64,000 nucleotides of DNA from Vermamoeba vermiformis (taxonomy: Eukaryota), in the NCBI GenBank assembly GCA_045837725.1, contig JBEWZL010000056.1, forward strand, positions 62,001 to 126,000. Reading direction: 5' to 3'. Within the stretch, counting starts at the first letter, position 1; every line of letters begins with the position of its first letter. The notes beneath the pieces were generated by a model. It was given only the letters and a program-made list of their open reading frames with translations, searched no databases and was not told the origin of the DNA. Below, piece after piece: positions 8,880 to 35,011 of this stretch. The position numbers were made by a program, and so were the translations under genes.

Positions 8880-9966
8880 AATTTATATAGATCATATTGG
8901 ATTACTTTTAATGGCTATCGTACTGATTTTATTTTTGACGATCCAGATCCAGCGATTAAAGTGTGCATTGTGTGCTATTAAAGTGCGAAATTTCTTTGAG
9001 AAAATACCTGACGAGAATACATCAACTAAAATATAATCGATCAATACCTTACAAGTGCAACACCTGCTGAATTTGTATGGATCCGTTTGGATCAGACAAA
9101 AAATCAACTTTATTTGTTCCCAGTACAATTTTAATACGCTTTAATACGAAACTTTTAATAAGAATGTTATCGCTAAGCAGTTTTTTAGCCGGTTGACGAA
9201 TGCAGGTGGGAATCTTCGGATTCAGGTACGATATCACTCTCTTCCTTCTTCGTGGACATCAAGTGCGGTGTGCGGGAGTCTTTATGTTCCCGTAATATAT
9301 TTTAATAATTAAACCACAAATGATCACTTCCGGGTCGACTACTTACTTTTTGGGGTTAAGTTCCCCAAACTCACTTCTGTTCCAGCTCCACTCTACCTTA
9401 TTTTCAGTACTTATTATTTCATTATAAAACGAAATGTCTGGCAGTTGACCAGAAAAAATGAAGCCTTAAAAATCGAGATCGGTACGGATCGTTCCAGAAA
9501 ATTTCGCAGTTCCTCTGGTGTTTAAGCCAATATTATTATTTTCTGTCGACTAAATCTTTGTAACAAGATAACAACAATGAGCAACGTAGCGCAGATTCTT
9601 CAAGCAGGCGACGCCATCACCTTTATGGAAGTAAGTTCAAGAACGAGTGAAAGGGTATAAGCGAAATCTGTTCGCTAATAACTAAAATATAGGCCGGTGT
9701 CAGATCTCCTTATATGGGATTTTGGTTCATTGGGCTTGAAAAATACCAGCAAAAGAATTTTGGTCGGGCAGATGTGTTTTGGAGACGATTTGATTTGTTC
9801 GGTGGCCTTCAAGTAAGAAATATATTATCTTATTTAACAATTTAACAATTAAATTATTTAATCGTTATTCTAAAGGAGTACAAGTTCACAAATGGAGTTT
9901 GGGGATTTGACGCAAAAACGGATTCAGTTCACATTGACATTATTAAAGAACAGTACTCCTACAATA

Positions 9967-10214
9967 TGTAACGTAAGAAATTACCCGTTGAAGACTTTGC
10001 GCGGATTCGCTATTACCCGGATCGCGTAATTGAATAACATTATTTGAATAATCCAATATCCTAATAGGCTAAATAATATTATTAATAATTATATTAGCCT
10101 AAATAATAATCAAAAAGTATAAATACGCTACTCGCGTAGCGAATCTCTTTGTACCTCTCTTTTATATAATAAACAACACATCTCTTTGTTGTAACAGCTT
10201 ATTTATTTGTTACA
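9967..10214 (+). repeat. 5' LTR of the Gypsy element
   Basis: Reads as identical to 20063-20310. TG...CA termini, internal TATAAATA and AATAAA, inverted repeat TAGGCTAA...TTAGCCTA. Confidence 0.97.
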
Positions 10215-10215
10215 T

Positions 10216-10230
10216 TGGTTCCGATAACGG
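10216..10230 (+). promoter_or_regulatory. Primer-binding site, probably for tRNA-Glu
   Basis: TGGTTCCGATAACGG lies 1 nt after the LTR. Its reverse complement CCGTTATCGGAACCA ends in CCA and resembles the TATCGGA acceptor stem of eukaryotic tRNA-Glu. Confidence 0.7.
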
Positions 10231-10863
10231 ATCCTATCCGATTCTTCACGCGACAACACTTTTCAACTCACATCTGACATCCGACATCCGCTGACATGTA
10301 CACTCGTCGAAGACGCACCCGTGGACGTGGCTCTCGAGGAGGGAGACAATCAATCTCTGCCCCGCAATCACCTTTGGTATCTCCTGCTAACAACAATACG
10401 CCCGCTGGATCTTCAGCTGAAAGTCAGGATGAGGCCCCATACGACTTCGCTGAGGGAGGAGAATTTCGTGACGTGCATGGTAATAATGTACATATTCCGC
10501 CGCAACCTCCTGTCAATAACCAGCAAGTTCCGCCTGTTGGAGTGGCTGATCCGAATCCGAATCGAGCGGAGAATGGAATTCTTTTCGACATCCAACGCAC
10601 TCTACATCGGTCAAACCTCGCTATTGAACGTCTCAGTAACCGCTTGGACATATTTGAAGCTCGTATGGATCGACAAGAGACTTTGCTTCATATGGCTCGC
10701 AACGCTGCTCGGAACAACCCGCAACCTGGCCTGGATCAGCAGCAGAGACAACATAATCCTCCTCAACAATCGTTTAGAGTCGAGGACAAGCACTTCCCGC
10801 AAGCAATCAAGCCCTTTACTGGCAATGGTGAACCTTCTGCCGAAGAGTGGATCAAATCCGTGC

Positions 10864-11058
10864 AGCTACAGTGACGCAGCACTTAGCGTATGAATAGGCC
10901 AAGCGGATCGGTTTTTGGCAGCCCTGGTGGAGAAGTCACGTGCGATTCACACCAAAATTGGAAGTTCGAGGAAATAGAAGTGTCGAACGCCAACGCCAAG
11001 ACTACCACAAGGCTCGTATATTTGACAGAGCCTAATATTTATTTGTTAATTTTTTCTT
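10864..11058 (+). repeat. Split direct repeat A1 (195 bp)
   Basis: Matches 15229-15423. Confidence 0.95.
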
Positions 11059-11080
11059 AATTCGGAAATAAATTTCAACG

Positions 11081-12463
11081 ATGACTGCGAGACAATCGTT
11101 TATCCAGAACCTAGTGGAGACACTCAAGACCCCACTACTCTCAAACTGGCCTGAAGCGCGACTCTGGAAGCAAGCTCTGGGATCCGTGAAATGGTCGATC
11201 ATAGATCAGGCTGGGTCAGATGTGGACCAGCTTCGCTTCTTATGCTCCCTGGCGTTGGCGTACTGCTTAGGAGGGGAGTTTGATCAATTGGAGCGCAGTC
11301 CAGCAGTGTCGAAGGAGGAAATCTCTCGGATCTACTCCAAGGCGGCAGATTTAGTGGAGGATCCGGAGCTGTTGCCGTTGTTGGCCCCAGTGACTAAACG
11401 GGTGGAGAATTGGTCGTCCCAGGGACCTCCTCAGCCAGTGGATCGCCCATCGGAGTCTCCTGAGAAGATCAACTCGGATGGCGACCAAGATTCAGAAGAC
11501 TCAGACAGTACTGAAGCGGAGATTGCCCGAGCTGTCCGAGAGTACATGAAGAAGAAGCGCAATAAACGGCAGAAGATCGGAGAGTCTCAACCGAAGACCC
11601 CTGCTACAGCTCCAGCAGTTCAGATCACGGATGTCCCCCCTCCTAGCGCTTTGGCGAAAGACCCTAAGGTGGCGGCGGGTGCTGACGCACTTATCGCCCA
11701 ATTGGAGCTCAAGTTGTCGTCGATGAAATCGCAGTTGGACTCGCTAGCCGGGAGCCTCGTTCCCCAGAGCCCCATCAACAACTTGCTTTTGCCTCAGCCC
11801 TGGGGCCAATCTTTGATCCACGGAACGTCGAAAGCCACCCCTGTTGGTCAACTGGCGGACGTCCAAGCGACAGTCGAGCTGAGGAAGCCAGGCCAGGTCT
11901 ATCTCCCGCGCTGTTTCACCAAGGAGGCATTGGAGAAGAGGTTGCAACCCTCGCAGGCTAAGGTCCCACAGAACGCGGAGGATTATATCCGAGCGTCGTG
12001 GGAAGTCAAGGACCTCCTCGAGAAGGAGGAAGGTTTTGTCGAGCGAGATTACAATGCCTTTGTCCGCTGGATCGTGGAGCTTGGTGATGGCTACGAATGG
12101 CTCTCAGTTATGGCACTGGACGAGCGCCTCAGATCGCTCCAAGCAGTGGGCAAGCTTCGCTGGAAAGACAGGCCCTTGGAGAGCCTCTTCACTACTCTTC
12201 GAGCGCGTCCAATTCATCAACGTGCCGAGGCCAAGCAGGACAACAAGCCCAAGGCCTTTTCAGGCACCAAGAAGAAGAAGGGTGTCTGCTTTGCTTTCAA
12301 CGGTCACAAGGGTTGTTCGAAGAGCTCTGATGCATGCGAGTACTCTCATTCTTGCTCTGACTGTAAGTCCTCCAATCACAATGTCCTTCATTGCTCCAGT
12401 GGCCCAAAAGGCCATCCCGGCAAGACGAGTTCATCGGGCGCGTCTGCGGAGCGCCGGGAGTAG
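11081..12463 (+). CDS. Gag-like ORF1 of the YR retrotransposon
   Basis: 460 aa with a C-terminal Cys/His finger CFAFNGHKGC...CEYSHSCSDC...HNVLHC and a YEWLSVMALDERLR block typical of DIRS/Ngaro gag. Confidence 0.85.
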   Translation: MTARQSFIQNLVETLKTPLLSNWPEARLWKQALGSVKWSIIDQAGSDVDQLRFLCSLALAYCLGGEFDQLERSPAVSKEEISRIYSKAADLVEDPELLPLLAPVTKRVENWSSQGPPQPVDRPSESPEKINSDGDQDSEDSDSTEAEIARAVREYMKKKRNKRQKIGESQPKTPATAPAVQITDVPPPSALAKDPKVAAGADALIAQLELKLSSMKSQLDSLAGSLVPQSPINNLLLPQPWGQSLIHGTSKATPVGQLADVQATVELRKPGQVYLPRCFTKEALEKRLQPSQAKVPQNAEDYIRASWEVKDLLEKEEGFVERDYNAFVRWIVELGDGYEWLSVMALDERLRSLQAVGKLRWKDRPLESLFTTLRARPIHQRAEAKQDNKPKAFSGTKKKKGVCFAFNGHKGCSKSSDACEYSHSCSDCKSSNHNVLHCSSGPKGHPGKTSSSGASAERRE

Positions 12464-14025
12464 AGATCGTAGCCCGCTCTAGTGCAGTGACCCTCCGCTT
12501 CAATCAGTGGAAGAGATTCTTGGTGGGGGACTCTGACGCCGACTTCCTGACCGACATTTTCAAGCCTGGTGGTGGCCTTCGAGTTGTCAAGGAGGGTGTG
12601 GCTGTGCCAGCGTCTTTCTTGCCGAACTACGCTAGTGTCTTGGAGTGCGAAGACTTCATCCACCAAGACATTATGACGGAACTAGAGAAGGGTTTCATTG
12701 CAGTACTGCCAGTCCAACCATACAAAGTCAATGCTCTTGGTGCAGTCAAGAAGAGCGAAGGCAAGTTCCGTCGCATTACTGATCTCAGTCGCCCAAAGGG
12801 TGCGGCGTTGAATGAATACATTGATTTGGTCAATTTTCAGTTTAGCACGGTCGATGATGCATGCGACTTCATAATGGAAAACCCTTGGGTTTTTGGCTGC
12901 AAGTTCGACATTGAAACAGCTTATCGTCATGTCCCGATCTGGCCGGGTGACTGGCATTACTTTGGCTTCGAGTGGCGTGGCACCTTCTACATCGATCTGC
13001 GCCTCTGCTTTGGTCTAGCTTCAGCTCCTTACGTTTTCTGGAGAATTTCTAATTTCATTGTCCGAGTAGGCAACAAGTTCTTTAACGTGGCCTTCATTTT
13101 GCCCTACATTGACGACTTCCTCGTGCTTTCTGTTGGCACTGACTCTGATGCTGCACGCGCTCAAGCTTGGAAAGACTTCGTCAATTTCCGCGAGTGTCTA
13201 ACCGAATTGGGTTGGCCAATTTCAGAGAAGAAGATGGTTGAGCCCTGTCAGGATCTGGTCTTCCTTGGCATCCGCATCAATATGCATGATCGCATCATTT
13301 CTTTACCAGAAGACAAGCTAGCTGACCTTCTCGACATTCTACGGAGCTTCAAGGATCGAGTTTCGTGCACTAAGCGCGATCTGGAGCGCTTGATTGGTAA
13401 GCTCAACTTCGGCGCTAAAGTGATCAGGGGCGGACGCACTTTCCTCCGCCGCATGATCATCCTGGCCAACTCGGTCCCAGAGCGACATCACGTGGTGTCT
13501 CTAGACGATGAATTCCGTGCAGATTTGGATTGGTGGCTTCGATTTGCGAGCGCCTGGAATGGCAAAGCCGTTATGCTGGACCCAATGCCCATTGACATGC
13601 GTCGGTTTGAGGTGGACGCCTCAAATAGTGCTGCGTGTGCTATCTTCGACAAGCACTTCATCGTGCGGATCCACGACCCTTTGACATCTGCGTGGCACAT
13701 CAATGATAAGGAGTGCCTTTCAGTCTACTTGGCTGCGCTTCGCTGGGCCCCAGAATGGGCCAACAAGCGGGTGATCGTCTCATCGGACAATACCACGACC
13801 GTTTCGGCCATCAACAAGGGGTCTTCAGCATCCCCAATCATCATGCGAATGCTACGGTCTCTGTTTTGGCTATCAGCGACACACAACTTTCACTTGACTG
13901 CGGTCCACGTACCGGGGGTTCTTAACGACCTGGCAGATGCGGGTTCGCGATTGAATTTCGACAAACTGATTGACAAAGGGCTCTCCATGCAGTTGTGCCC
14001 CGAGTTTGATCCAGAATGTCTTTGA
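12391..14025 (+). CDS. Reverse transcriptase / RNase H of the YR retrotransposon (no N-terminal ATG)
   Basis: KFRRITDLS, KFDIETAYRHVPI, LCFGLASAP, YIDDFL, FLGIRI; RNase H motifs VDAS, HINDKE, SDN, HVPGVLNDLADAGSR. Confidence 0.95.
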   Translation: MLQWPKRPSRQDEFIGRVCGAPGVEIVARSSAVTLRFNQWKRFLVGDSDADFLTDIFKPGGGLRVVKEGVAVPASFLPNYASVLECEDFIHQDIMTELEKGFIAVLPVQPYKVNALGAVKKSEGKFRRITDLSRPKGAALNEYIDLVNFQFSTVDDACDFIMENPWVFGCKFDIETAYRHVPIWPGDWHYFGFEWRGTFYIDLRLCFGLASAPYVFWRISNFIVRVGNKFFNVAFILPYIDDFLVLSVGTDSDAARAQAWKDFVNFRECLTELGWPISEKKMVEPCQDLVFLGIRINMHDRIISLPEDKLADLLDILRSFKDRVSCTKRDLERLIGKLNFGAKVIRGGRTFLRRMIILANSVPERHHVVSLDDEFRADLDWWLRFASAWNGKAVMLDPMPIDMRRFEVDASNSAACAIFDKHFIVRIHDPLTSAWHINDKECLSVYLAALRWAPEWANKRVIVSSDNTTTVSAINKGSSASPIIMRMLRSLFWLSATHNFHLTAVHVPGVLNDLADAGSRLNFDKLIDKGLSMQLCPEFDPECL

Positions 14026-15091
14026 CAGCGGAAGATTACATTGGCCTCGGCTATGTGGACTCCACGGTCAAGGCCAGGCAGGCAGTGGTTTCGGCCTTTG
14101 CCAGGTTCTGCTACGCTTCGAATCGAACATTCTTCCCGACGAACGAGTTTGTCCTGGCCGACTACGCGGCATATCTTGCAAATAATGGCGTCAAGGCAAG
14201 TTCGATCAAGACATACTTGACAGCCATTTTCGCTTTTCAACAGTTGCATGGTGGCCCACACCCAGCGCGTGACAGCCTTCGCCTCAAGGTGGTCCTCAAG
14301 GGCATTAAACGCGCGCAGTCCTACACACCGTCGAGCAAGCACCCTCTCACTCCTGTGGAGTTGCTCAAACTCAAGGCGTGCTTAGACTGGTCATCATCTC
14401 TCCACCGCACTTTCTGGGCTTGCCTCGTGGTCGGCTTCTGGTCTTTTCTTCGGGGTGGAAACCTTGTGCAGAAATCTGCGAAGAAATTCGACCCAGCAAA
14501 GCATCTCAGCGCGTTGAACTTGTCAAGGAACGAGCGTGGTTTCTTAATTTCGCTCAATCGAACGAAGACAGTCCAATTCAACGAGAGAAGGCTGATCATC
14601 CCGCTGCTCTCAGTACCGGGAAATGCGCTGTGTCCCGAAGTGGCCCTGGAGGCGATGTGGGCCTTGTGTCCCATGCCTGAATCGGGGTCGATTTTTTGTT
14701 TTAAAGGTGATGACGGTAGAGTTATGCCGCTGGTGCACTCGAAGCTTAACGATAGTAAGTATCGTGGCAGTAGTTGCATATTGTGCTTACTTACCTGTTT
14801 TCTCCAGTGATCAAGAAGACCTGCCTTCAGTGCGGGTTGGATCCGAAGGATTTCTCCGCACACTCGCTGCGTAAAGGTGGCACGACGGGAGCCTTCATCG
14901 CGGGAGCGGACAGGGTGATGGTCAAGGCTCAAGGAGACTGGGTGTCAGACGCCTACATGCGTTACGTCACTTTTTCTCTGGATCAGCGCTTGTCAGTCCC
15001 ACAGGCGATCATCGAGGCGATGAGAACTCCTCAATTTTTTGAGCGCTGCTCTTCCTTGTCTCTGGCGACGGCGGCGGCAATCTATCAATGA
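14016..15091 (+). CDS. Tyrosine recombinase, join(14016..14754,14808..15091)
   Basis: SAM-like N-terminus (ASSIKTYLTAI), catalytic R (FLRGGNL) and K (RTKT) in exon 1. HSLRKGG and GDWVSDAYMRY in exon 2. Intron GTAAGT...CTCCAG. Confidence 0.92.
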
Positions 15092-15120
15092 TCTGGTTTG
15101 GGGGCTCGTTCGCTGTGTTT

Positions 15121-15228
15121 GGGGGCTTTGGTGCTCTCGTTAGCCCCAACCCGTGGCGGGGGGTGACGGGGAGCCACCACCCCTAATAAAGCTGAATTTA
15201 CCCCCACGAGCAGCGCAGGCATTCGTGC
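15121..15228 (+). repeat. Split direct repeat B1 (108 bp)
   Basis: Matches 15457-15564; GC-rich; contains AATAAA. Confidence 0.95.
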
Positions 15229-15423
15229 AGCTACAGTGACGCAGCACTTAGCGTATGAATAGGCCAAGCGGATCGGTTTTTGGCAGCCCTGGTGGAGAAG
15301 TCACGTGCGATTCACACCAAAATTGGAAGTTCGAGGAAATAGAAGTGTCGAACGCCAACGCCAAGACTACCACAAGGCTCGTATATTTGACAGAGCCTAA
15401 TATTTATTTGTTAATTTTTTCTT
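15229..15423 (+). repeat. Split direct repeat A2
   Basis: Matches 10864-11058 and directly abuts B1. Confidence 0.95.
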
Positions 15424-15456
15424 TTTAATTTTTATTTTTATTCACGTTGTACAATA

Positions 15457-15564
15457 GGGGGCTTTGGTGCTCTCGTTAGCCCCAACCCGTGGCGGGGGGT
15501 GACGGGGAGCCACCACCCCTAATAAAGCTGAATTTACCCCCACGAGCAGCGCAGGCATTCGTGC
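15457..15564 (+). repeat. Split direct repeat B2
   Basis: Matches 15121-15228 and forms the right end of the element. Confidence 0.95.
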
Positions 15565-16320
15565 GCTCATTTATCGAAGACCAAGAAGGATGGACCGAAG
15601 CTATGAAGAAACAAGTCTTCTATTGCAGAACAAGTGATGGTGCTTATAATCACTTGGTTATCGCTAGTTTGGTATCAAGCGACATACTTTCGAAGAGATC
15701 TTGACTGAAATTCTCAACGAATATGGTGGTGGCAACCAAGACATGGTAAACTCGCTTCATATGAAAAATCTTGAGCAGTCTGACACTGAGACTGTCTCTG
15801 AATATTTTATGAGATTTTACAAGATCGCATCCAGAATTTCGAACCGATCTGACAGCGACAAAATGCATGATTTTATTTCAGGACTTCGTCTTGATATTCA
15901 AGAGTCCGTCGTGCATAAACAGCCCACCTCATTACATCAAGCTGTCGAGTTAGCTAAGAACGCTGAAGCCTGGACCGCGATGTATGGCAAGAAGAGAAAG
16001 AACGCTGCCAAACCTGCCCCGGTTCAACAAACGACCGTCAAGCCCTTCTTTTTCAGCAGAAACAATGGTCAATCGCCTCAACGCACGAACCCAATGGTCA
16101 CATCTGGATCTCCTCAGAATAATTCCAAAGTCGCGACTCCCGCTGCGACAAGCAAGTCAAATCAAGCTGCGACGCCCAAGACACCTGCGCCTAGCAACTT
16201 TGCCAAGAGACTTGACTACAACACCCCTTACCGCCCGCAACAGTTCAACAACATTGACGCATCCGAACTGGATCTTGACGAGAATTACGTTTTGGACGAC
16301 GATGAACTTGACGTCGACCA

Positions 16321-19300
16321 GGAAAACGACCAGTTGGAGGAGTAAATGGCTCGCCTCACTCCTTAGAGCAAGAGCCTTACAGCTCAATACCCTTTGAACT
16401 ACCCATTCTACAGCCCGACTACAACCCTTACCCAATCAAACCTCTCATCATACCTGCCTTTGTTCACAACATATTATCCGACACTTTATGGGATACTGGC
16501 GCCTCAAGATCGTTCGTCACCCCAGATCTCGTCAACGAACTCAAGATCAAGACTCACGCTGGTACACTCAACGTCAAAAACTCAAATCAACAACGGACAA
16601 CGCTCACTCACTATGCAATTGTTCCTATTCGACTCACTAATGGTTTCTCTATGGACTTCAAATTTTGGATCAACGACAAAATCAACTTTCCGCTAATTTT
16701 TGGTATGGATCTACTTAACGTCATGAAGCCTGTTCTGGATTTCGAGACTAGGCAAGTCTATTTTAAGCCTAGGATTATTCCCTACTCACCAGACAATATC
16801 ACGCGCGATACAACGATCATTCAACTGGAACGAGATCTACGCGTTCCCGCTCGCTGCGAGATGCGCTGCTCTTTACCTACTAATATGGCTGATGGTACCT
16901 CTGGTCTCATTGAACGTGCCGAATCTATCTCTGATCAATATGGCGTTACTTTGGCTCACAGTTTAACGACATCCAAAAATGGAAATATTATTGTCCGATT
17001 CTTAAATCCTCACGATACGGACATTATCATCAAGAAGAACACCAAAATTGGTCGCATAGTGCCCTATGAATTGCTTAATGAATTCTCTGACGAAGACTGC
17101 ACGTACACACAAGAAGAATTCTTCGCACCGTTCAAACTCGAAGAACGCTACAAACACTTGACTGCGCAACAACTAGAAATGCTCAAAAACACTATTTGGA
17201 AATGCCGCAACGCCTTCTCTTTTGGTTCTGACGCTCAACCTGGTTTAACTGACAAAGGAGAACATCGCATTGACCTTACTGACGAAACTCCGTTCAAACA
17301 GCATGCTTATCGCGTTCCGTACACTCAACGTGAATTCATGAAAGAGAAAATCGATCAAATGCTGGCTCAAGGCGTCATCTCAGTCTCGTCATCGTCATTC
17401 GCTTCACCTGTGGTTTTGGTTAAGAAGAAAGATGGCTCTCTACGATTCTGTGTGGACTATAGAAAACTCAATGGCGTAACTGTCAAAGACTTATATCCGT
17501 TGCCGAGAATTGACGACATGCTAACTTTACTTAACGGCAATCTTTATCTCTCAACACTAGACGCAGAAAATGGCTTTTGGCAGACCCCACTAGTGCCTAA
17601 AGATCGTCACAAAACTGCTTTCATCACTCCGTTTGGACTCTTTGAATTTAACCGGATGCCGTTTGGTCTTTGCAACGCTCCGTCAACATTTCAACGTCTT
17701 ATGGATGTGGTACTCTCTGGACTATTATGGCAAATCTGTTTGGTATATATGGATGATATTATCGTATTTGGACGCTCGTTCGAAGAACACTTACTAAATT
17801 TGGAAACCGTACTCAAAGCGCTCATCACCGCTGGTATCAAGCTCAAGCCCAGCAAATGCAACTTTTGTCAGGAAGAACTCAAATTCCTTGGTCATATCGT
17901 ATCAAAAGATGGCATTGCTACGGATCCAGAAAAGATCGAGAAAGTCAAGAATTCCCGAGAACCAACCAACGTCGAAGAATTACGCTCTTTCCTTGGACTT
18001 ACTGGTTACTATAGAAAATTCATTCAAAACTATGCTAATATCGCAGAACCTCTCATTCTACTCACCCGTCAAAACAACGCTTGGAAATGGGATCTCGCTC
18101 AACGATCCGCTTTCGAAGAGCTTAAGAAGAGGTTAACAGAAGCACCCATTTTAGCTCATCCCGATTTCGACTTGCCCTTCATTCTCTACACTGACGCTAG
18201 TTCCGTTGGACTTGGTGCCGTTTTATCACAAATTCAAGATGGAAAAGAACGCGTAATTTCGTACTGGTCCTCGACACTTGACCCTGCTAAACGAAATTAT
18301 TCCGCTACTGAAAGAGAATATATGGCCGTCGTCGAAGCTGTCAAGAATTTCCGTTACTACTTACTTGGAAAGAAATTTGAATTGGTCTTGGATCATCAAT
18401 CACTCGTCTTCTCACGCACTATGAAAGATGGAAATCAACGACTACTCAAATGGAGCTTATTTTTGCAAGAATATGATTTTGACATCGTTCATCGCTCAGG
18501 AAAATCACACTCGAACGCAGATGCACTCTCGCGATTGCCGATCGTCACTCTCAACAACATAATTGAAGAAGAAGTCGACATGCCCATCAATTTCACGACA
18601 GAACAAATCCAACAAGCCCAAGCTTTGGACCCTCTTATCAAGCCGCTCTTGGATCTCGTCACTACTCGATCCAAATCTAAAAATAGAAAGAAACAAAAGA
18701 AGTTAGAAGATTTCGTGGTCGAAGATGGCATATTATATCGCAACTATAGACCTAGTGGCATCGAAGAATTAATTCAGCGACAACTGGTACTTCCGCTCAC
18801 GCTCCGACCTCAGATCCTGAAATTCTATCACGATTCCGCTATTGGTGGTCATTTTGGATTCATGAAAACATATGGAAAAATTAGAGAACGCTTCTACTGG
18901 TTTGGAATGGCTAAAGATATTCAACACTACGTCTCATCTTGCGAATCCTGCTGTCGAAGGAAAATTCAACGCAAGATCTTTGGTGAACTCACTCCAATCG
19001 TCGTAAGCGAACCCTTCGAAATATTAGGAATGGATCTATTAGGTCCCTTCAAACCAACCAAGCACGGAAATAGCTACATTCTCGTCATGAGCGATCACCT
19101 GTCAAAATGGGTCGAAGTTTTTCCGCTCGCCGAAATTACATCAGCTGACATCGCTAAAATCTTGGTCGAAGAAGTAATTTGCCGCCATGGCTCCCCTCAG
19201 AGAATTCTCACTGATCAAGGCGACAATTTCAACTCGCAACTCGCTCATCAGATCTACAACATTCTCGCTGCTAAGAAAATGCGCACTGTGGCATATCACC

Positions 19301-20067
19301 CTCAAACGAATGGACTCACTGAACGCTTCAATCAGACTCTCGCTCAACAACTCACTCCGTTCGTCAACGAGAAGAAATTTTCAATTGCCTACAAAGTCGC
19401 CAAGCAAAACGTTGCTCAACGCAACGCTGATCTCAAAGAAGACAAGAAGTATCTTTACAAGAAGAAACAGAAGCTCAAACCGAAAGACATAGTCTGGTAC
19501 GCGCTCGCAAAACTTCCGCCTGGAACGACGAAGAAATTGGCTTATCGCAACATTGGTCCCTATGAAATCGAATCACTTCGTGGCAACAACGCACTCATAG
19601 TTAGTCCCACTGATCCAAAAGATAGACTCTACGTCAACGTTGGACAACTACGACTTCAGATCCCTCGCCGAAAAGAATTGGATATGGAAATTTCATCTTC
19701 TACCGATGAAATCTTACCCGCCGCTGATGACACGCCGCCTACACCTCATCAACGATCGCCGCCTGCGAAAACTCAACGAAAAACCACTGCCCGAAGAAGA
19801 AAATCTCCGTCAGATCTACTGCTCGAAAATCTACGCCTTATCTACACCTCAGTTCGAGATGGTGAAATGCTCAACGCATTCAAGACATCGCTGAAAGAAG
19901 CTATTGGCGAAGGTAGTGCCTGGACTACGTCAACGAAAGTCAAGAAACAATGGGAAAATCAGATCGTCACTGCAAGCACCGCTGCCGCCCTCAAAGAACT
20001 CATCGACAAATTCATCAAAGAAAATAACTTGGAGGACCAAGTCAAAGCTAACGAGGGGGTAATGTAA
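16321..20067 (+). CDS. pol: Gypsy pol (PR-RT-RNase H-IN), probably expressed by -1 frameshift; integrase appears internally deleted
   Basis: The frame is open upstream of Met 16651 and contains protease LWDTGAS. RT LRFCVDYRKLN and YMDDII; RH YTDAS and NADALSR; IN HHCC, GMDLLGP, TDQG, NGLTERFN, IGPY. The stop lies within the 3' LTR. Confidence 0.93.
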   Translation, partial: GKRPVGGVNGSPHSLEQEPYSSIPFELPILQPDYNPYPIKPLIIPAFVHNILSDTLWDTGASRSFVTPDLVNELKIKTHAGTLNVKNSNQQRTTLTHYAIVPIRLTNGFSMDFKFWINDKINFPLIFGMDLLNVMKPVLDFETRQVYFKPRIIPYSPDNITRDTTIIQLERDLRVPARCEMRCSLPTNMADGTSGLIERAESISDQYGVTLAHSLTTSKNGNIIVRFLNPHDTDIIIKKNTKIGRIVPYELLNEFSDEDCTYTQEEFFAPFKLEERYKHLTAQQLEMLKNTIWKCRNAFSFGSDAQPGLTDKGEHRIDLTDETPFKQHAYRVPYTQREFMKEKIDQMLAQGVISVSSSSFASPVVLVKKKDGSLRFCVDYRKLNGVTVKDLYPLPRIDDMLTLLNGNLYLSTLDAENGFWQTPLVPKDRHKTAFITPFGLFEFNRMPFGLCNAPSTFQRLMDVVLSGLLWQICLVYMDDIIVFGRSFEEHLLNLETVLKALITAGIKLKPSKCNFCQEELKFLGHIVSKDGIATDPEKIEKVKNSREPTNVEELRSFLGLTGYYRKFIQNYANIAEPLILLTRQNNAWKWDLAQRSAFEELKKRLTEAPILAHPDFDLPFILYTDASSVGLGAVLSQIQDGKERVISYWSSTLDPAKRNYSATEREYMAVVEAVKNFRYYLLGKKFELVLDHQSLVFSRTMKDGNQRLLKWSLFLQEYDFDIVHRSGKSHSNADALSRLPIVTLNNIIEEEVDMPINFTTEQIQQAQALDPLIKPLLDLVTTRSKSKNRKKQKKLEDFVVEDGILYRNYRPSGIEELIQRQLVLPLTLRPQILKFYHDSAIGGHFGFMKTYGKIRERFYWFGMAKDIQHYVSSCESCCRRKIQRKIFGELTPIVVSEPFEILGMDLLGPFKPTKHGNSYILVMSDHLSKWVEVFPLAEITSADIAKILVEEVICRHGSPQRILTDQGDNFNSQLAHQIYNILAAKKMRTVAYHPQTNGLTERFNQTLAQQLTPFVNEKKFSIAYKVAKQNVAQRNADLKEDKKYLYKKKQKLKPKDIVWYALAKLPPGTTKKLAYRNIGPYEIESLRGNNALIVSPTDPKDRLYVNVGQLRLQIPRRKELDMEISSSTDEILPAADDTPPTPHQRSPPAKTQRKTTARRRKSPSDLLLENLRLIYTSVRDGEMLNAFKTSLKEAIGEGSAWTTSTKVKKQWENQIVTASTAAALKELIDKFIKENNLEDQVKANEGVM
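20053..20062 (+). promoter_or_regulatory. Polypurine tract
   Basis: GAGGGGGTAA immediately before the 3' LTR. Confidence 0.75.
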
Positions 20068-20310
20068 CGTAAGAAATTACCCGTTGAAGACTTTGCGCGG
20101 ATTCGCTATTACCCGGATCGCGTAATTGAATAACATTATTTGAATAATCCAATATCCTAATAGGCTAAATAATATTATTAATAATTATATTAGCCTAAAT
20201 AATAATCAAAAAGTATAAATACGCTACTCGCGTAGCGAATCTCTTTGTACCTCTCTTTTATATAATAAACAACACATCTCTTTGTTGTAACAGCTTATTT
20301 ATTTGTTACA
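20063..20310 (+). repeat. 3' LTR of the Gypsy element
   Basis: Reads as identical to 9967-10214 and is followed by TSD CAATA. Confidence 0.97.
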
Positions 20311-20811
20311 CAATAATAAAGGCGAGGACGATGATATTCAAGATCTGCATAATGGTCATAAATCGTTCGTTTTGACCAAAGCTTCAGAAGCTGAGATCGC
20401 ATCCCGATACGCAGATCTCGGAGATTTGAACGAAGAAGACGCTGAAAAGATCAATGCAGATAAAATTAAGCAGCATGTTAAATTTAGTAGAGTAGATCCG
20501 GAATCTACTGACAAATCCAGCATGGCGACTCCACCGTCAGAATTAATTTTGGTTGCTCATGGTGCGAGAGACATGGATGATGTAACTATCGGACAATTTA
20601 ATAGCGTTGAAGAGCTTAAACAATATTACGTCGAGAATGGATTTGATTTGATATTCCTTTAAATTTTCGCTGGTGAAAATAAATTAGATCCAAACGAAAA
20701 GAAAATTTTGGATTTAATATTGTCTTATTTATTACATGGTTCGCTGCAAAGTGAAATAAAGTTGCATTGATGTTATTACCTTATTTAGTAATCGAAAATT
20801 CTATCGATCGC

Positions 20812-23485
20812 TTAGAAAATTCCATTTTTGTACCAATTGCCCGAATTGAATTCTTCTCTCAGTCCGTGACTGCACGCAAAATATTCGTCGTAGCGACCAC
20901 CAGTAGTGCGCAGTAAGAATTGCAAGTACGAAGGTCTATAAGAAAAATATGAGTACCCACATCCAGTCCGATCTTAAAATTTCCAAGAGTCAAATTAATT
21001 TTTTAATAGAAAAATGGATTATTTTGTACGTAATAAATCTATATTCTTTGTGCTTGCTAAAATAATGATGGCAGATTGATGCAGCATGAAAAAAATCAGT
21101 GACTTATCGTCCTTAGCGTGACACGTGTCAAACAGAAGTCATTGCAAATTTCGCATTAAAATATTAATCTAACGCTACAGACTGACTCCAGAAACAATAA
21201 CTAGTGACACGTGTCAAACAGACGTCGTGTCAAAATAGAGGTTGCGAAAGAATAAAGGTTCCAATTCAATGATTCTTACCTCAAGCAATCAGGCTCCCAC
21301 AACGAGCCGTAGAACAACACAGCGGTGCAGAATGAATAGAGCAGCACTTCGCCGTTCTTGATCGGCTTGATTTTCTTCGTATCAACTGCGTATCTGAACA
21401 ATGTTTCGGCTGCCTATTAACAAATCATTACTATCATCTATACTGCTTAATATAGATAATATATTATTAATATTCGAATAAACCTTAAAAAAATTGAAAT
21501 TTGGATGTGGATCCGAAATTTGAGCCCGACGAATTATTAGTCGTTTTTTTGATATTATAAGTGTCTTATATTGATAAATTACCTTAGCTACGACCCACAT
21601 AGAGATATCCGGACTTTGAATCAGTGCGGAGGACAATCCAGCGGTGAATCCAGCAATCAACGAGTTCGTCGCGTCTTCTTTGCCTCGAACGCGCCTTTAA
21701 GCACGAGATAAAATTAATACAATGCACGTAATTGCCTTATTTGGTAATAACACATCGTTGGAGGTTTGTTGTACGTACTTTAATATGCAGTGAACAATTC
21801 GTTCAAGTCCTGAGAGCAAACCGAGGAACAAACTGAACCGGAACTGAATATTTGCAGATGTATTAGTTAGTGCATAATATTTCCAAAAAAGGAAATAAAT
21901 ATCGTCGCTGCTTCAATAATATCTTGGGACACCATTTTTTCACGGCAAGTCAAAACCAGCAAATCACTTCGATTTGGATAACAATGATAATCCGACAGTA
22001 TTTCCTTATTAGGAAAGTGATTTCTAATGACTTACGGTGTACTTGTTCAACGCAATATCGAGCAATCTGCGCCACACTTGGTTGCTGAACAAAACTTTTG
22101 GTCGGACTAGCAGTGACAATAAGCCGAATACGCTCTATATTTAGTAATGTTAGAACGATCGCGTGGTTGAATTTCCATATTTGGTAAGGTAAAACTTTGT
22201 ATGAGGTTGAGAAAACTGACCTTGAATAAAAATGCCAAAATGAATGATTGACCGAATCCCATAATACTATAATGCAAACAATAGCCTCTGTGTTCGCACA
22301 ACTTGCAGTCTATTAATAAAATATCAGCAACGGAGATCCGCTGACGAAAACTTGCCTAATTTGGAAAAATGGTTTTTTTTAGATTGAACAAATTATCGTT
22401 CGTAAGAGTTAGTAAGACGAAAATATTGAACTTACTAGGCTTTCCAGGAATAGTTTTACTGACAATTCGTTCAAACCAACTCTTTTTTTGTTCAGATCCG
22501 ATGAAAAATTTCATGAGACCGCCAATATTATTGCCCAGATTGGCTGGTCTGTATTTATAGAATGCTACGAGGACACTCCATGACATAGCAAATAGGAGAG
22601 TAAGTCCACCAGGAATAGGAAGTGCCAATTCTAAACAAAAATTTCGGTCAAGATCCGATCGGAAAAATAAAAGTCATTTGAATTGTCAACAATGCGTGAT
22701 CAATATTATATTATATATGTATGACTTACTTCTAGCTACGGCCATTTTAAATAAGGCCTCTGCAGCTTGATTCATGACATAGACGGCCAATTCTACGCGT
22801 CGATGAGGTTTTTCGATAAATAAATACAAATAAGAGCCCAAAAACGCATTTAAAAATGAAAAAATGCGATAATTTCTGCCAGTTAATGATGTGGCCACGC
22901 ACATTTGACCGCAGAAAGAACTTCCATAAGCAGCTAAAAATAAAAACAACGGATCAGTATCGGATCTTCATTTGCGTATTATTAATTAGGCTTAAATAAT
23001 TAATGATAGATATTTATATACTAATTATTGATAATTTTAAATGTAACCGACTAAATTTGCCGTGTGCACAAAAAATTGATTTTCGCGTGACATTTCTCGG
23101 TGTTTTTGAAGGCGGTGCCGCTGATACTAAAAATATGGCATATCATAATATTAAGGTACTATTAGATAAACAAATCCGGTAATCGATTTCGTTAAAGCGC
23201 AGATCCGAACGGCTAATAAACAAATTTTTTGTATTTTTCTAACGGGTGCTTACCAATAAATAAACTGCTTCGTAATATATTAGGCAATGTCTTCTTAATA
23301 AAAAATTGGAAGTTCTTTTTGTTAAGCAAGTGTGTTAAAATGTAGATCGGCCCGTAGATCTTCAAGCAATTGTTAAATGTATCAATAAATGCTCTCCAGA
23401 CATAAACATAGTGCGATCCAGTCTTGGCATGAATGGTCACCGAGCAGGGCTGATAAAACCAATAAAGCTCCTTCGAGTTGGACAT
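20812..23485 (-). CDS. TMEM135-like membrane protein (multi-exon)
   Basis: PCSVTIH, LKIYGPIY, NILRSSLF, FIEKPHRRVELAVYVMNQAAE, CEHRGYC, IAGFTAGLS, PSYLQFLLRTTGG; stop at 20812-20814. Confidence 0.75.
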
Positions 23486-26475: not shown

Positions 26476-27178
26476 GATGAGAAGTGGTGTTATGTTGTCT
26501 AAAGAATAAAAAAAAAATTCGACGACAAAAATGTTTTGCCTTATTTGGTTAAATTCATTCACGTTTGTGCCAGTTGCCGTTGTATGGTGTCGTTGGACTA
26601 TAATTACAAAATATCGACCCAATATTAAAGCATTCAACGATCGGAGCACAGCCAATGGCAGCATCGTTTGCATTTGGATCAGATTTACATTATTACGATG
26701 GATAACGCTCCGAAATCTACATACCCTGGAATTTAATAGATCCAAATACGGATCATCCGCTTTTTTTAACCCCGAACTTTTGCTGATCTAAATTCAAAAA
26801 TCAGCAAGTTTTAGTCCGACTCCCTCCGTGCAGACTTCCAATTAACGTGTAAGTTTAAAATGACGATTTTCTCGATCTTGTATAACGTTATACGAAGCGG
26901 CAAATCATATCAGAAATAACTAAGCAAGCCTTTACTAGTAACGCAAATCGAACTACCAATCGCGTATCTTTTCGGTTTGTGAAGAGTCATTGTTAAGCAG
27001 TGCTGCAGTAATTACCCTGAAAATGCATCGTAGCTTTGTGAAATCTACAACGGGAACAACCGGGTGTGAACTTTTGGGAACAAGCTCCCAGGGGAAGCAC
27101 GTGCTTCCTGTGGATAAAAACCAATCTGTCTTACACCAAAAGATTGTTTTTAGCAACGATACTACTACGACAGCACAG

Positions 27179-27703
27179 ATGACGCGAGTATTACTTATCG
27201 TCGCACTTTTGTTGCCTTTGGTGTTCGCTCAAACACGACCAACACTTGAAATCGTCGTATTCTCCGACATCTGCGCAACCTACATCACTACGTACGCTTT
27301 GGAGAATAATCCTTCCTTGTGTCAAAGGTTACCCTCGGTCACCGGTGGCATAGTCAGTGGATGGCCAGGATACGCTCGGTGTCAAGGAGATAGGATGCTC
27401 TTATCCTACTGCAGACGACAAGACAATGCCACAGACTGTGGTGACTGCGAAACACCTGTTCAAGTTTCCATCCGCAGTCGAGACACAGGGTGCGGTTGGG
27501 ATGGAATTATAGGCGCATCGGTCAGAGTTTCTTGTCCGCCAATCAATACAATTCTTGTTGAAGAAGGCGCGTTTGCTGTGGCTTGGAGTGGATTCTGCGT
27601 ATTTTTCGTCATGGCTGTTGTTTTTATGGCTCTGTATATCCACCAAAGAAGATCCGCAGTAAACATGTACAAAAACGCTCCACTAGCAGAACCGCTAATG
27701 TAG
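27179..27703 (+). CDS. Single-pass membrane protein with Cys-rich ectodomain
   Basis: Signal MTRVLLIVALLLPLVFA, 8 Cys, TM AWSGFCVFFVMAVVFMALYI, short cytoplasmic tail. Confidence 0.7.
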   Translation: MTRVLLIVALLLPLVFAQTRPTLEIVVFSDICATYITTYALENNPSLCQRLPSVTGGIVSGWPGYARCQGDRMLLSYCRRQDNATDCGDCETPVQVSIRSRDTGCGWDGIIGASVRVSCPPINTILVEEGAFAVAWSGFCVFFVMAVVFMALYIHQRRSAVNMYKNAPLAEPLM

Positions 27704-32157: not shown

Positions 32158-32613
32158 ATTAAGTAAATTAACAATTAGTAAAAAATTTACATAGACGAAA
32201 AGTACTGTCATATTTCGATCGATTTATTTAATTTTGCTTTCGAAAATCGTAATATCGTAACAAATTAGATAATTAGTGCTTACTTTAAGATACTTTTTAC
32301 TATCATATATACGGAGAAGTAAATCGATACCAGTTTTTTTGCGAGATTCGTGAGGTCAAACGGAGATAGTGCAGTATAGTCAACTAGAGATAACTTGAGT
32401 AAAAAAAATATATCAGCGAATATAATTTAGCAATGCGAGCCACTTCACTAGCTCCGAAGTACGAAAGATCTTAAATTGGAATTCTACCAAATGCGATTCA
32501 ATCGTATTGCTTCGTTATCATTGGTCCATTACTGTCTGTTTTTTCTGTTTTTGTCACGTGCAGTATAACTTTTAAAGCCGTTTGTAAAATTCATTTGTTC
32601 TTTTCCAACCGAA

Positions 32614-35011
32614 ATGCGTGCAACGGCTCTATTTATTTTGCTTGCACTCGTTAGCTATTCATATCAACAAGATGTTGCTGTAAAAGGTTGCCCTACGGCA
32701 GTTTCGACCCTCAACCGCGCATGCATTAGCACGACTTTCGGCACAGTAGATACATTCGATCTTTCGGATTCAACCTTTTGTGCCGAGGGCTTCACCCTTA
32801 CTACGTGCATTGATGGTTCATGTATTGATACGGACACATCTGACGCACTTAGACTGGTTATTCCACAGCTTTTTCGGCCTAGCATCTGCCCGATTTGCTC
32901 CGACATCCCGTTTATTTTGGAATCCTCGAGGAAAGTCTGCACAGCGTTTGGATTAAATCATGTTATCCCATTCGATAGACAGCCTTATTTTTGCGGCAAC
33001 ACAGACTTACAAAATGGGACAACATTATTGGCTACGAACTTCATAACTTTAACGGCCCTCACATCCGCAACCGAACCTGGATTTGTCGGCGTTAGATTTG
33101 ATTACCACGGATGCATTGTCTTCTCGCAAACTTGGTATGCCAAAGACGAATGGTCATCAGACAGAGTACCCACTGCCGGATGGTTCCCGCACACCGTCAA
33201 GATCAGTCAAAATGCAACTCAAGTATCAATTGCATTGGCCGCTCTCAACACCGATATTTATATAACGAAGAACGGAAAGGCCATGGCAGTCAGTATTGGT
33301 TACGGAGTGCGCTCATCCACGACGGATGCAGGCGTTTGTGCGGTTGCCGCGACTTGCGTTGCCGAGACTAACTACATCATGCCGACGCCTACTACACCAC
33401 CGTGCACTTCAATCCCGCTTATATTCGCTACAGGTACGGCAAAAGTGATATAGATCTGTCGGTGCACACGTGATCCGTTTGAACTTACTCATCATTCTAG
33501 GATGCCAATTTGATGTTAACACGATGAACTCCACTTGGGGTCAAAATGCATATGACGCAGCAACTATTGATGCCGCCTTGAAAGCTCTTCAAGGCAACGG
33601 TACCGTCCTCCAAGAGCTCGATTGTAAGTCATTCTTTATGGCCTTGTATCACTGCTAACGTGTTCTTATAGTCCAACGACGAGGTCTGCCCATTATACTG
33701 ACATTGGTGCCCAGTGGTGCCTTTGTCGGGTTGTACATTGGCGTGTACTTCTGGCGCAGACGAGTCATCAGAGGACGCGCCGAGACAATGGCATTTACGC
33801 AACACAAAGGCTGTTGCAACGCTTCGTGGACAAATGGCTTTGGCAATAGAACGGTCATTTCGTACAACCAACACAGCGCCCGTGAAAATTTGACGAGAGC
33901 CCCGATCCGAGCGATCTGGTGTTGGATGGTATTTTGCCTAAACTCACACGCTCTTGGCCTCGTGTACTCCTTCACGGGTCTAGTACTGCTGTCAATGTTC
34001 TGTGGACTTTGGATATTCTTGTACATTGCTAAGAACGTCGAAACCATTCACTACGGCAGCAGCAAATTCAGCGTGGCTTCCATCATCATTTACAAAGTCA
34101 TCATGAGCATGGTCTTGGCTCAACAGGCAGGCATTGGAATCATCGGTGTTGTTGCCTACGAGTATTACCTCTACGAGATCCAGTTCTGGTGGGGCATTGC
34201 AGTGCTAATCTTCATGTTCATCGGTGCATTTTGGATGATGATAACTGGCTTCGATTTGTGCCTTGCAACGAGATACTTGATAAAGGGTGTTCCAAAGCGT
34301 GAAAACCCTGTCACGATCGCTCTGCAACAGATCTCAAACGACAACAACAATAATCGTGCCAATAGAGGTCTGTTAGGAATGGTCTATCCACAAGCTATTC
34401 CTGACAACAATCAAAATCACGTGGTCGCTGTCCAACAACAACACGTCATTCCGAACGCCGTGCAGATGCAGCCCGCGGTTCAGGTGTCAGATCAGGTCAT
34501 TCCACCACCTCAAGCACATGTTATCCAAGGCCAACCAGCTATGAATATGCAAGTGTCCGACAATGTCATACCTCCTCCACAAGCACACGTCATCCAGCCT
34601 CAACCGAACATGTACGGCAATGGCGTCATTTCACCTCCCGACAACAATCCGTACATCAAGCCAGCACCCGCGGATATGATTCCTGGATACGGATCTGTTA
34701 ATATCACGGCAAATATAGACCAGTCAGACCCTTGCTATCGAGTCGCAAAGCGTACCATCAAAATGGCGGCGTTGGATTTAGAACCTGCCCGAGAAGAACA
34801 AATCAGCCAGAAGATCGTCGAGATGTTGCAGTCAATGAACGTATCCTACAATCTTCGCGGAGAAGATGGCGAAGCAGCTAGTTTGAGAAACGATCTGGCT
34901 AAGAATTTGGCCGAGGAAGTCAGGATGTACAAGAATGATTCGATGGACGAGCTCTCTTATGGCCTAAAAGAGGCAATTTTGTTATGGAAAGACGAGCATA
35001 AGCTTACTTAA
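32614..35011 (+). CDS. Membrane protein with signal peptide, Cys-rich ectodomain, several TM helices and Gln/Pro-rich cytoplasmic tail
   Basis: ORFs 32614-33453, 33470-33658 and 33704-35011 are linked by short introns; VIPPPQAHVIQ repeats. Confidence 0.7.

Follow-up and report, generated by a model that had tools for sequence, protein, structure and literature searches.

Ngaro elements, which belong to DIRS, an order of retrotransposons that use a tyrosine recombinase, are marked by split direct repeats in the arrangement A1-[ORFs]-B1A2B2 (ORF, open reading frame), by a reverse transcriptase/RNase H gene followed by a tyrosine recombinase gene and by the lack of a methyltransferase, as far as the available portions of the descriptions go (PMC8547959, PMC13465315, PMC4157794). 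For DIRS1-like elements, the accessible text of two accounts describes an integration in which a circular junction of 3 bp recombines with the same 3 bp in the genome, leaving no target duplication (PMC3266345, PMC7192593). Members of the order are also reported inside other mobile elements. In Cafeteria, 91% of type-1 Ngaros lie within virophage-like elements (PMC8547959, available portion), and DIRS-1 is reported to insert preferentially into DIRS-1 (PMC7192593, available portion). The window described here, a 64,000-nucleotide stretch of Vermamoeba vermiformis DNA (contig JBEWZL010000056.1, positions 62,001 to 126,000, forward strand), contains a nested arrangement of this kind. A host exon is interrupted by a Ty3/Gypsy element at 9967-20310, the gag gene of which is itself interrupted by a 4701-nt inner element at 10864-15564. 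It is likely that two independent and recent insertions produced this structure, first of the Gypsy element and then of an Ngaro-type element that entered at a short core match, expresses its recombinase from a spliced messenger and reaches its second reading frame by frameshifting.

Anatomy and classification of the inner element

The features of the inner element are as follows.

10864-15564 (+): Ngaro-type tyrosine-recombinase retrotransposon, 4701 nt
10864-11058 (+): repeat A1, 195 nt, 195/195 identical to A2, with TATATTT at 11017-11023
11081-12463 (+): ORF1 of 460 aa, which occupies the position of a gag gene and is rich in Cys/His at its C-terminus
12367-14025 (+): ORF2, reverse transcriptase and RNase H, 552 codons from stop to stop
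14016-14754 (+): tyrosine recombinase exon 1, with the motif FLRGGN holding the first catalytic Arg
14755-14807 (+): intron in the recombinase gene, 53 nt, GTAAGT..AG
14808-15091 (+): tyrosine recombinase exon 2 including the stop codon, with HSLRKGG and ..GDWVSDAYMRY..
15121-15228 (+): repeat B1, 108 nt, with AATAAA at 15185-15190, ending in the core ATTCGTGC at 15221-15228
15229-15423 (+): repeat A2, directly adjoining B1
15424-15456 (+): AT-rich spacer between A2 and B2, 33 nt
15457-15564 (+): repeat B2, 108/108 identical to B1, ending in the core ATTCGTGC at 15557-15564

The repeats follow the plan A1-[ORFs]-B1-A2-spacer-B2, that is, split direct repeats, and the repeat search pairs 10856-11058 with 15221-15423 and 15121-15228 with 15457-15564. 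ORF2 matches RVT_1 in Pfam (E 4.3e-8) and gives a weak RT_RNaseH match that falls below the cut-off (E 0.006), past which it continues for about 55 residues. Among its 283 homologs, one protein is 100% identical, and others are 78% and 55-62% identical. ORF1 has no Pfam match and is 53% identical to the ORF1 of a relative on the metagenome contig L001. This relative is 78% identical at the protein level, and its B end lies off the contig.

The two recombinase exons have no match in Pfam, Phage_integrase included, and one homolog (P0136) shows a weak match to Phage_int_SAM_5 that is below the cut-off (E 0.0016). A profile of the recombinase family matches Cre recombinase chains (E 3.1e-8, profile positions 11-150). 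It sets FLRGGN opposite LLRAAE and HSLRKGG opposite GHSARVG of Cre, with the first catalytic arginine and the HxxR motif in register. The R, H-x-x-R and Y motifs of the Cre-like superfamily are all found, as FLRGGN, HSLRKGG and AYMRY. The predicted structure of an intronless recombinase homolog is poor, with a mean predicted local distance difference test score of 60 and a catalytic half below 50.

By these structural marks, rather than by placement in a tree with named references, the inner element is classed as Ngaro-type. As in Ngaro, split direct repeats accompany the gene order ORF1, reverse transcriptase/RNase H, tyrosine recombinase, and no methyltransferase domain is present. None of the ORFs of the inner element has a Pfam match to a methyltransferase, a domain that may be unmodelled in Pfam for DIRS elements, and the conclusion that it is absent draws in part on the lack of room after RNase H in ORF2. 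The inverted terminal repeats and internal complementary region of DIRS1-like elements are missing, with no inverted repeats of at least 40 nt in 9000-21500. A PAT-like element would combine split direct repeats with a methyltransferase domain; here the repeats are present and no methyltransferase was found. The inner element departs from described Ngaros in two respects. Its ORF1 and ORF2 overlap by 97 nt, whereas Ngaro is usually without ORF overlaps according to the available part of PMC3266345. Its recombinase gene also contains a conserved intron, and no Ngaro with such an intron was found described in the literature searched, which did not include the founding Ngaro papers.

The interrupted gag and its empty site

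The gag gene into which the inner element is inserted is read as follows.

10296-10863 (+): N-terminal part of the Gypsy gag in frame 0, broken off by the inner element; aligns with P0145 residues 70-241
15565-15656 (+): Gypsy gag continued, frame 0; aligns with P0145 residues 243/244-273
15657-15667 (+): gag frame break, eleven nt against three homolog residues
15668-16345 (+): Gypsy gag, C-terminal part, frame 2, with Retrotrans_gag and a Ty3 capsid domain

The reference for the interruption is P0145, an uninterrupted homolog of 502 aa that was found with the C-terminal gag frame and is 65% identical. The flanks of the inner element lie in one frame and read ..EEWIKSV, a split codon, then SFIEDQ... 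On P0145 the upstream piece runs to residue 241, the split codon corresponds to residue 242 and the downstream piece begins at 243/244. The more distant homolog P0149 (39% identical) has the same spacing from W to a hydrophobic residue at this site. The pentamer CGTGC occurs at both 10859-10863 and 15560-15564, which leaves the boundary of the inner element ambiguous by 5 nt. From the exact abutment on P0145 it follows that the empty gag site would have held the nine bases ATCCGTGCG once, and on this alignment the 4701-nt version of the inner element is the correct one. A candidate deletion of 4710 nt, which assigns both core copies to the element and leaves a core-less target, is also in frame and is rejected by the P0145 alignment.

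The sequence-only reading had held that deleting 10864-15564 restores gag. This stands locally, across P0145 residues 241, 242 and 243, and does not stand for the gene as a whole, which carries a frame break about 100 nt downstream. At 15657-15667, between P0145 residues 273 and 277, eleven bases take the place of three residues. Contig 6 of sequencing run X1, which may be the assembly's own data, matches the window at these positions. The gag of this Gypsy copy is defective apart from the insertion that it carries, yet the terminal repeats are identical and pol is open over 1251 codons.

A shared core at the junctions

Four sequencing runs were compared with the window over 9000-21500: X1, the probable source run; X5 and X7, which are water/aquifer metagenomes; and X19, an RNA run. 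Relatives with flanks were sought in a scan of metagenome contigs with reverse transcriptase alignment, in which 37 pattern matches yielded two confirmed loci, L001 and L002. Both hold 78% relatives; one has its left flank and neither reaches the B repeats. A 25-nt degenerate pattern drawn from the start of A had no match in viral or genome contig collections. The junctions that could be compared are these.

10856-10863 (+): 8-nt core ATCCGTGC in its left, target-side copy; the 30-mer 10856-10885 is common to another X1 copy
Empty gag site, as reconstructed: ..CAA ATCCGTGC G CTC..
Left junction: ..CAA ATCCGTGC / AGCTAC..
Internal B1/A2 junction: ..GGC ATTCGTGC / AGCTAC..
Right junction: ..GGC ATTCGTGC / G CTC..
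Left junction of L001: ..CATA ATTGGTGC / AGCTAC..

Element and target share 5 nt exactly and 7/8 nt overall, and one copy of the core is kept at each end. When the left junction, the internal B1/A2 junction and the left junction of L001 are aligned, nothing is shared to the left of the 8-mer, and from its first base onward all three are continuously similar, reading AT[C/T][C/G]GTGC AGCTAC... The L001 copy matches the core at 7/8 positions, and the chance of a 7/8 match is about 4e-4 per junction by our own arithmetic. Contig 2 of X1 extends as far as 10885; at 10856 it is met by a different contig, whose left flank of 61 nt is unrelated. The X1 contigs were built with k = 31, and overlaps of 30 nt are seen at other repeat edges (11029-11058 and 15121-15150). 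Together with the join at 10856, these overlaps mean that the second X1 copy carries an identical ATCCGTGC before AGCTAC. By the same k-1 = 30 overlaps, the start of X1 contig 6 at 15536 implies that the part shared between copies would include the G at 15565.

The two end copies of the core differ at one position only, as would be expected of an ordinary target-site duplication of 8-9 nt, made by staggered cutting and followed by one later C/T mutation. Several observations make this very improbable. The same 8-mer recurs within the element, where B1 meets A2. It is found unchanged, beside a different flank, in the second X1 copy, and the 78% relative matches it at 7/8 positions in the corresponding place. 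Duplications that arose separately would have no sequence in common, and the enzyme encoded by the inner element is a tyrosine recombinase, not a DDE integrase. What the junctions suggest instead is conservative recombination at a short core common to element and target, and not staggered cutting.

In the mechanism considered most likely, the cDNA of the inner element would be closed or joined at its ends, so that B runs directly into A; this is the junction that, in published models for the order, is stored internally as B1/A2. The Cre-like recombinase would then recombine the core ATTCGTGC-A at the B/A junction with a near-identical genomic ATCCGTGC-G. The product would have no target duplication and one copy of the core at each end. 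What the data show directly is the anatomy, the exact meeting of both pairs of flanks, the copies of the core, the intron with its conservation and the Cre-like recombinase; the circular intermediate and a crossover within the core, like the order of events, the splicing and the frameshifting, are inferred.

Other known systems can be compared on this point. The DIRS1-like model, in the available portions of PMC3266345 and PMC7192593, involves the same duplication-free recombination, with one copy at each end and one internal. It differs in having inverted terminal repeats, an internal complementary region, a methyltransferase and a 3-bp junction, where the inner element has direct repeats and a match of 5 nt exactly or 7/8 nt. 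Cryptons likewise encode a tyrosine recombinase and are bounded by short direct repeats that reflect target microhomology and not a true duplication (PMC13465315, available portion). They lack the reverse transcriptase and the split direct repeats that the inner element has.

The third comparison is with site-specific recombination, for which the 8-bp spacer of loxP and the core of phage lambda serve as reference. In Cre/loxP and at the att cores of phage integrases, the same short asymmetric sequence occurs in both partners and in both product junctions, as it does here, and the recombinase profile matches Cre. Unlike loxP, the core of the inner element has no inverted binding arms that could be found around it.

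The position of the inner element in gag could also be a matter of preference, with mobile elements serving as safe-harbour targets, as the sequence-only reading had proposed. The Cafeteria Ngaros (PMC8547959) and DIRS-1 (PMC7192593) are precedents, as far as the accessible text of each extends, and the inner element does sit in a transposon in the only copy that can be seen in full. The Cafeteria Ngaros within endogenous virophages (Hackl et al., 2021; PMC8547959, available portion) show the same nesting in a mobile element and are also richer in G+C than their surroundings; the G+C fraction of the inner element is 0.50-0.52 against 0.35-0.45 in neighbouring sequence. In Cafeteria, however, the preference is statistical and drawn from 80 elements (PMC8547959, in the portion available), whereas the single nested copy here can show none.

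Of about three copies, only one is seen to lie in a transposon. Two other flanks are visible: 30 nt of sequence unlike gag to the left of the second X1 copy, and the L001 flank, which has ORFs with Peptidase_S74 and leucine-rich-repeat-like matches and no transposon domains. The Gypsy interior is missing from X5 and X7, which do contain the inner element, and the position in gag needs no explanation beyond a short match of sequence. The inner element would thus lie in gag because gag carries a core-like sequence and not through a preference for transposons. On these grounds the proposal of safe-harbour targeting is not upheld, and such targeting is judged improbable. Introns, targets and nesting are not treated in Muszewska 2013 (PMC3783388).

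Two features of the L001 left flank were observed in passing. A 120-nt direct repeat occurs at 34-153 and 2486-2605 of that contig (93% identical, 2.45 kb apart), and the minus-strand ORF with the Peptidase_S74 and leucine-rich-repeat-like matches lies between its copies.

The outer element, the host gene and the probable order of insertion

The outer element and the host gene comprise the following features, those of the host gene and the duplication being read from the sequence.

9577-9966 (+): host gene, upstream part, an open frame with GTAAGT/GTAAGA..AG introns
9577-9630 (+): host exon 1
9631-9692 (+): host intron
9693-9812 (+): host exon 2
9813-9875 (+): host intron
9876-9966 (+): start of host exon 3, to the insertion point
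9962-9966 and 20311-20315: target-site duplication CAATA, left and right copies
9967-10214 (+): Gypsy 5' long terminal repeat (LTR), 248 nt, TG..CA, 248/248 identical to the 3' LTR
10216-10233 (+): putative primer-binding-site-like stretch starting with TGG, 2 nt past the LTR
16312-20067 (+): Gypsy pol, open, 1251 codons, with Pfam domain matches
20053-20059 (+): purine run GAGGGGG before the 3' LTR, possibly a polypurine tract
20063-20310 (+): Gypsy 3' LTR, 248 nt, TG..CA
20316-20662 (+): remainder of host exon 3 through the stop codon

In the repeat search over 9000-21500, 9966-10214 and 20062-20310 are 100% identical. Without its passenger the Gypsy element is 5643 nt long. Its pol matches Pfam domains for an aspartyl protease, RVT_1, RNase H, an integrase zinc-binding domain and the rve core. 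Like other Ty3/Gypsy LTR retrotransposons, it has TG..CA LTRs, a 5-bp duplication, Retrotrans_gag and the order protease, reverse transcriptase, RNase H, integrase; it is unlike a typical member only in the frame break of its gag and in the insertion that it carries. The window contains no tRNA gene with which the primer-binding-site-like stretch at 10216-10233 could be compared.

The predicted host frame starts with ATG at 9577, passes through two short GT..AG introns, ends with a stop codon at 20660-20662 and specifies a product of 203 residues. Joining 9966 to 20316 yields an open frame reading ..EQYSYN/NKGEDDD.., which bears out the claim that deleting 9967-20315 restores the host exon. 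The exon has no Pfam match and no homolog was found among longer proteins; the host gene is a small orphan gene. In X5, two of the three variants in host exon 2 are synonymous. The sequence-only reading was equally right that both elements lie on the plus strand with identical terminal repeats (LTRs 248/248, A 195/195, B 108/108). A BLAST search of the 64-kb window against itself finds no further copy of either element.

The proposed history has two steps. The Gypsy element would first have integrated into host exon 3 through its DDE integrase, duplicating CAATA, and an autonomous Ngaro-type element, present in about three copies in the genome, would then have integrated into the Gypsy gag. 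The evidence on copy number comes from X1, in mean word depths of contigs, which by the tool's own warning are not copy numbers: 360-385 for the host flanks, 306-322 for the Gypsy interior, 315 for the contig across the gag/A1 junction, 967-992 for the interior of the inner element and about 1000-1280 for the LTR. These depths suggest about one Gypsy interior, about three copies of the inner element and a further two LTRs. The flanks of other LTRs appear in X1 as loose ends at 9967 and 20312, and the loose end at 10856 shows that one or more additional copies of the inner element have a different, non-gag left flank.

The metagenomes add a second line of evidence. The inner element is present at a depth of 7-9 in both, with 0 differences over the listed pieces in X5 (333 + 3818 + 290 + 37 nt) and 2 differences in X7, and in neither run does the Gypsy interior have any depth. 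The inner element thus exists independently of this Gypsy, and the composite is seen once, both as successive insertion would predict. The proposal in the sequence-only reading of two very recent successive insertions therefore agrees with the data. The X5 fragments of the host gene differ from the window at 22/536 positions (about 4%). An inner element that is 100% identical over about 4.5 kb in a lineage with a diverged host gene is an observation in its own right, which could reflect very recent spread or mixed strains.

The same reading had offered, as its other possibility, that the tyrosine-recombinase element rode inside the Gypsy RNA. The inner element would have entered a Gypsy copy elsewhere, and transcription of the whole 10.3-kb composite, started in the LTR, would have been followed by its retrotransposition into the host exon. 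The shared strand of the two elements is compatible with this, as are their terminal repeats, which are 100% identical in both so that neither can be dated before the other. Also compatible are the LTR reads in X19, which seem to come from a related Gypsy family that is expressed.

A composite passenger would nevertheless call for a donor, and none is visible in X1, where the Gypsy interior (306-322) and the junction contig are approximately single-copy relative to the host flanks (360-385). Every gag function would have had to be supplied in trans, as gag is both interrupted and broken in frame. A sense AATAAA tends to truncate a transcript, and those in B1 and B2 would tend to do so to a composite RNA. 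The junction of the two elements was not found at more than one locus with different duplications, as judged from its roughly single-copy depth among the contigs of one sample. Given this depth, the non-gag left flank of the other copy and the lack of the Gypsy interior in X5 and X7, the passenger proposal finds no support and is considered distinctly improbable.

It is least probable of all that the nesting is an assembly artefact in which repeats were joined into a chimera. In favour of one, both the LTR and the inner element exist in several copies, and no listed contig spans the whole stretch. Against this, the host/LTR, gag/A1, B2/gag and LTR/host boundaries are each crossed by a single-copy X1 contig with 0 differences, and both pairs of flanks restore reading frames and homolog alignment, unlike a random chimera. 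Neither an empty host allele nor an uninterrupted gag appears in X1, where the contigs run unbranched through 9966/9967 and 10863/10864, although rare variants can be lost from contigs. Among the pieces listed, none of the four runs has a joint. The empty host allele that the sequence-only reading had suggested looking for in reads is accordingly not seen in X1, where the host/LTR contig is unbranched, and the listed contigs of X5 and X7 do not cross 9966/20316. Nested insertion is ordinary, and in this case it calls for no special mechanism.

Proposed expression of the inner element

The recombinase gene is divided by the 53-nt intron at 14755-14807. Its two exons abut on the intronless homologs P0136, P0142 and P0144 (326-343 aa), with one residue between them that corresponds to a split codon. 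An intron is found at the same site in both 78% relatives, at about 7880-7945 of L001 and about 2015-2080 of L002. Its length differs by 13 nt from that in L001 and L002, the exon edges are conserved and the intron sequence is well conserved. Four closer database homologs of the recombinase end at the intron point, and more distant homologs (47-52% identical) are without the intron.

The recombinase would accordingly be translated from a spliced mRNA. The unspliced RNA would serve as the template for replication, because the intron persists in sense orientation in genomic copies. No description of such an arrangement of intron, template and messenger was found in the literature searched, the founding Ngaro papers lying outside it.

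ORF2 would be reached from ORF1 by a different route, for which there is one candidate site.

12403-12409 (+): heptamer C CCA AAA in the ORF1 frame, within the ORF1/ORF2 overlap, candidate -1 frameshift site

The roughly 48 nt that follow the heptamer are 100% conserved in L001 (window 12403-12460, L001 5530-5590), in elements that are otherwise about 71% identical in DNA. ORF2 is probably expressed through a -1 frameshift at C CCA AAA.

Signals for transcription and polyadenylation can be placed in the repeats. TATATTT lies in A, 35-41 nt before the end of A, and AATAAA lies in B, 38 nt before the end of B. Their positions would fit a transcript that begins at the end of A1 and extends into B, and whose lacking ends are provided by the internal B1A2.

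The reads of X19 mostly fall on the LTRs, where they are 90-95% alike, and a loose end at 10194 carries poly(A). It seems that a related Gypsy family is expressed in another sample under the same species label.

Weighing the evidence

Several observations weigh against the history and the mechanism proposed here. The 8-mer is about as common in the window as chance predicts, with 5 occurrences where 4 are expected, and two ATTCGTGC sites, at 36173-36180 (-) and 45263-45270 (+), are unoccupied; together these imply that the core alone would be insufficient to make a target. No inverted repeats that could bind the recombinase were found around the B/A junction, at lengths of 7 nt and above. The core is read from few junctions, namely those of this copy, one left junction in X1, the G deduced at 15565 and the left junction of L001. 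Folds downstream of the heptamer are alike in the window and in L001 and are no better than those of shuffled sequences (z -0.36 and -1.88). The 43 reads of the RNA run X19 include none on the inner element or the Gypsy interior.

The order of events is deduced from copy number, itself drawn from contig depths, and is not dated, and with both repeat pairs 100% identical neither element is measurably older than the other. Finally, X1 may be the assembly's own data, in which case it is not independent with respect to misassembly, and its listed contigs do not span the whole structure. With these points taken into account, two successive insertions remain the likely explanation of the locus.

The two unoccupied copies of ATTCGTGC can be viewed in another way, as potential targets, or else as a sign that the 8-mer by itself does not suffice.

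Other features of the window

Elsewhere in the window, a long open frame at 52639-54105 (+) encodes F-box and ankyrin-repeat matches. The long frames at 26942-27703, 32569-35011 and 44165-45451 have no Pfam match.

Implications for the Ngaro lineage

The uninterrupted homolog of the Gypsy gag allows the empty target of a tyrosine-recombinase retrotransposon to be read to the base, which is rarely possible. The junctions are direct sequence evidence for the conservative, duplication-free model of recombination in an order that is poorly understood, and they suggest a target core that may be longer than the published 3 bp. The conserved intron leads to a testable prediction as to which RNA is the template and which the messenger.

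A wider proposal can be put forward tentatively, as a possibility that we hold to be somewhat doubtful. This Ngaro lineage may be sequence-specific, with an att-like site of 8-9 nt, ATCCGTGC-G, that is far longer than 3 bp; its recombinase may come from a spliced subgenomic mRNA alone, much as env does in retroviruses, with unspliced RNA serving replication; and it may have spread very recently between lineages by sexual exchange or horizontal transfer. If the core were to hold over all copies, the inner element would provide a tractable eukaryotic pair of recombinase and site for biochemistry.

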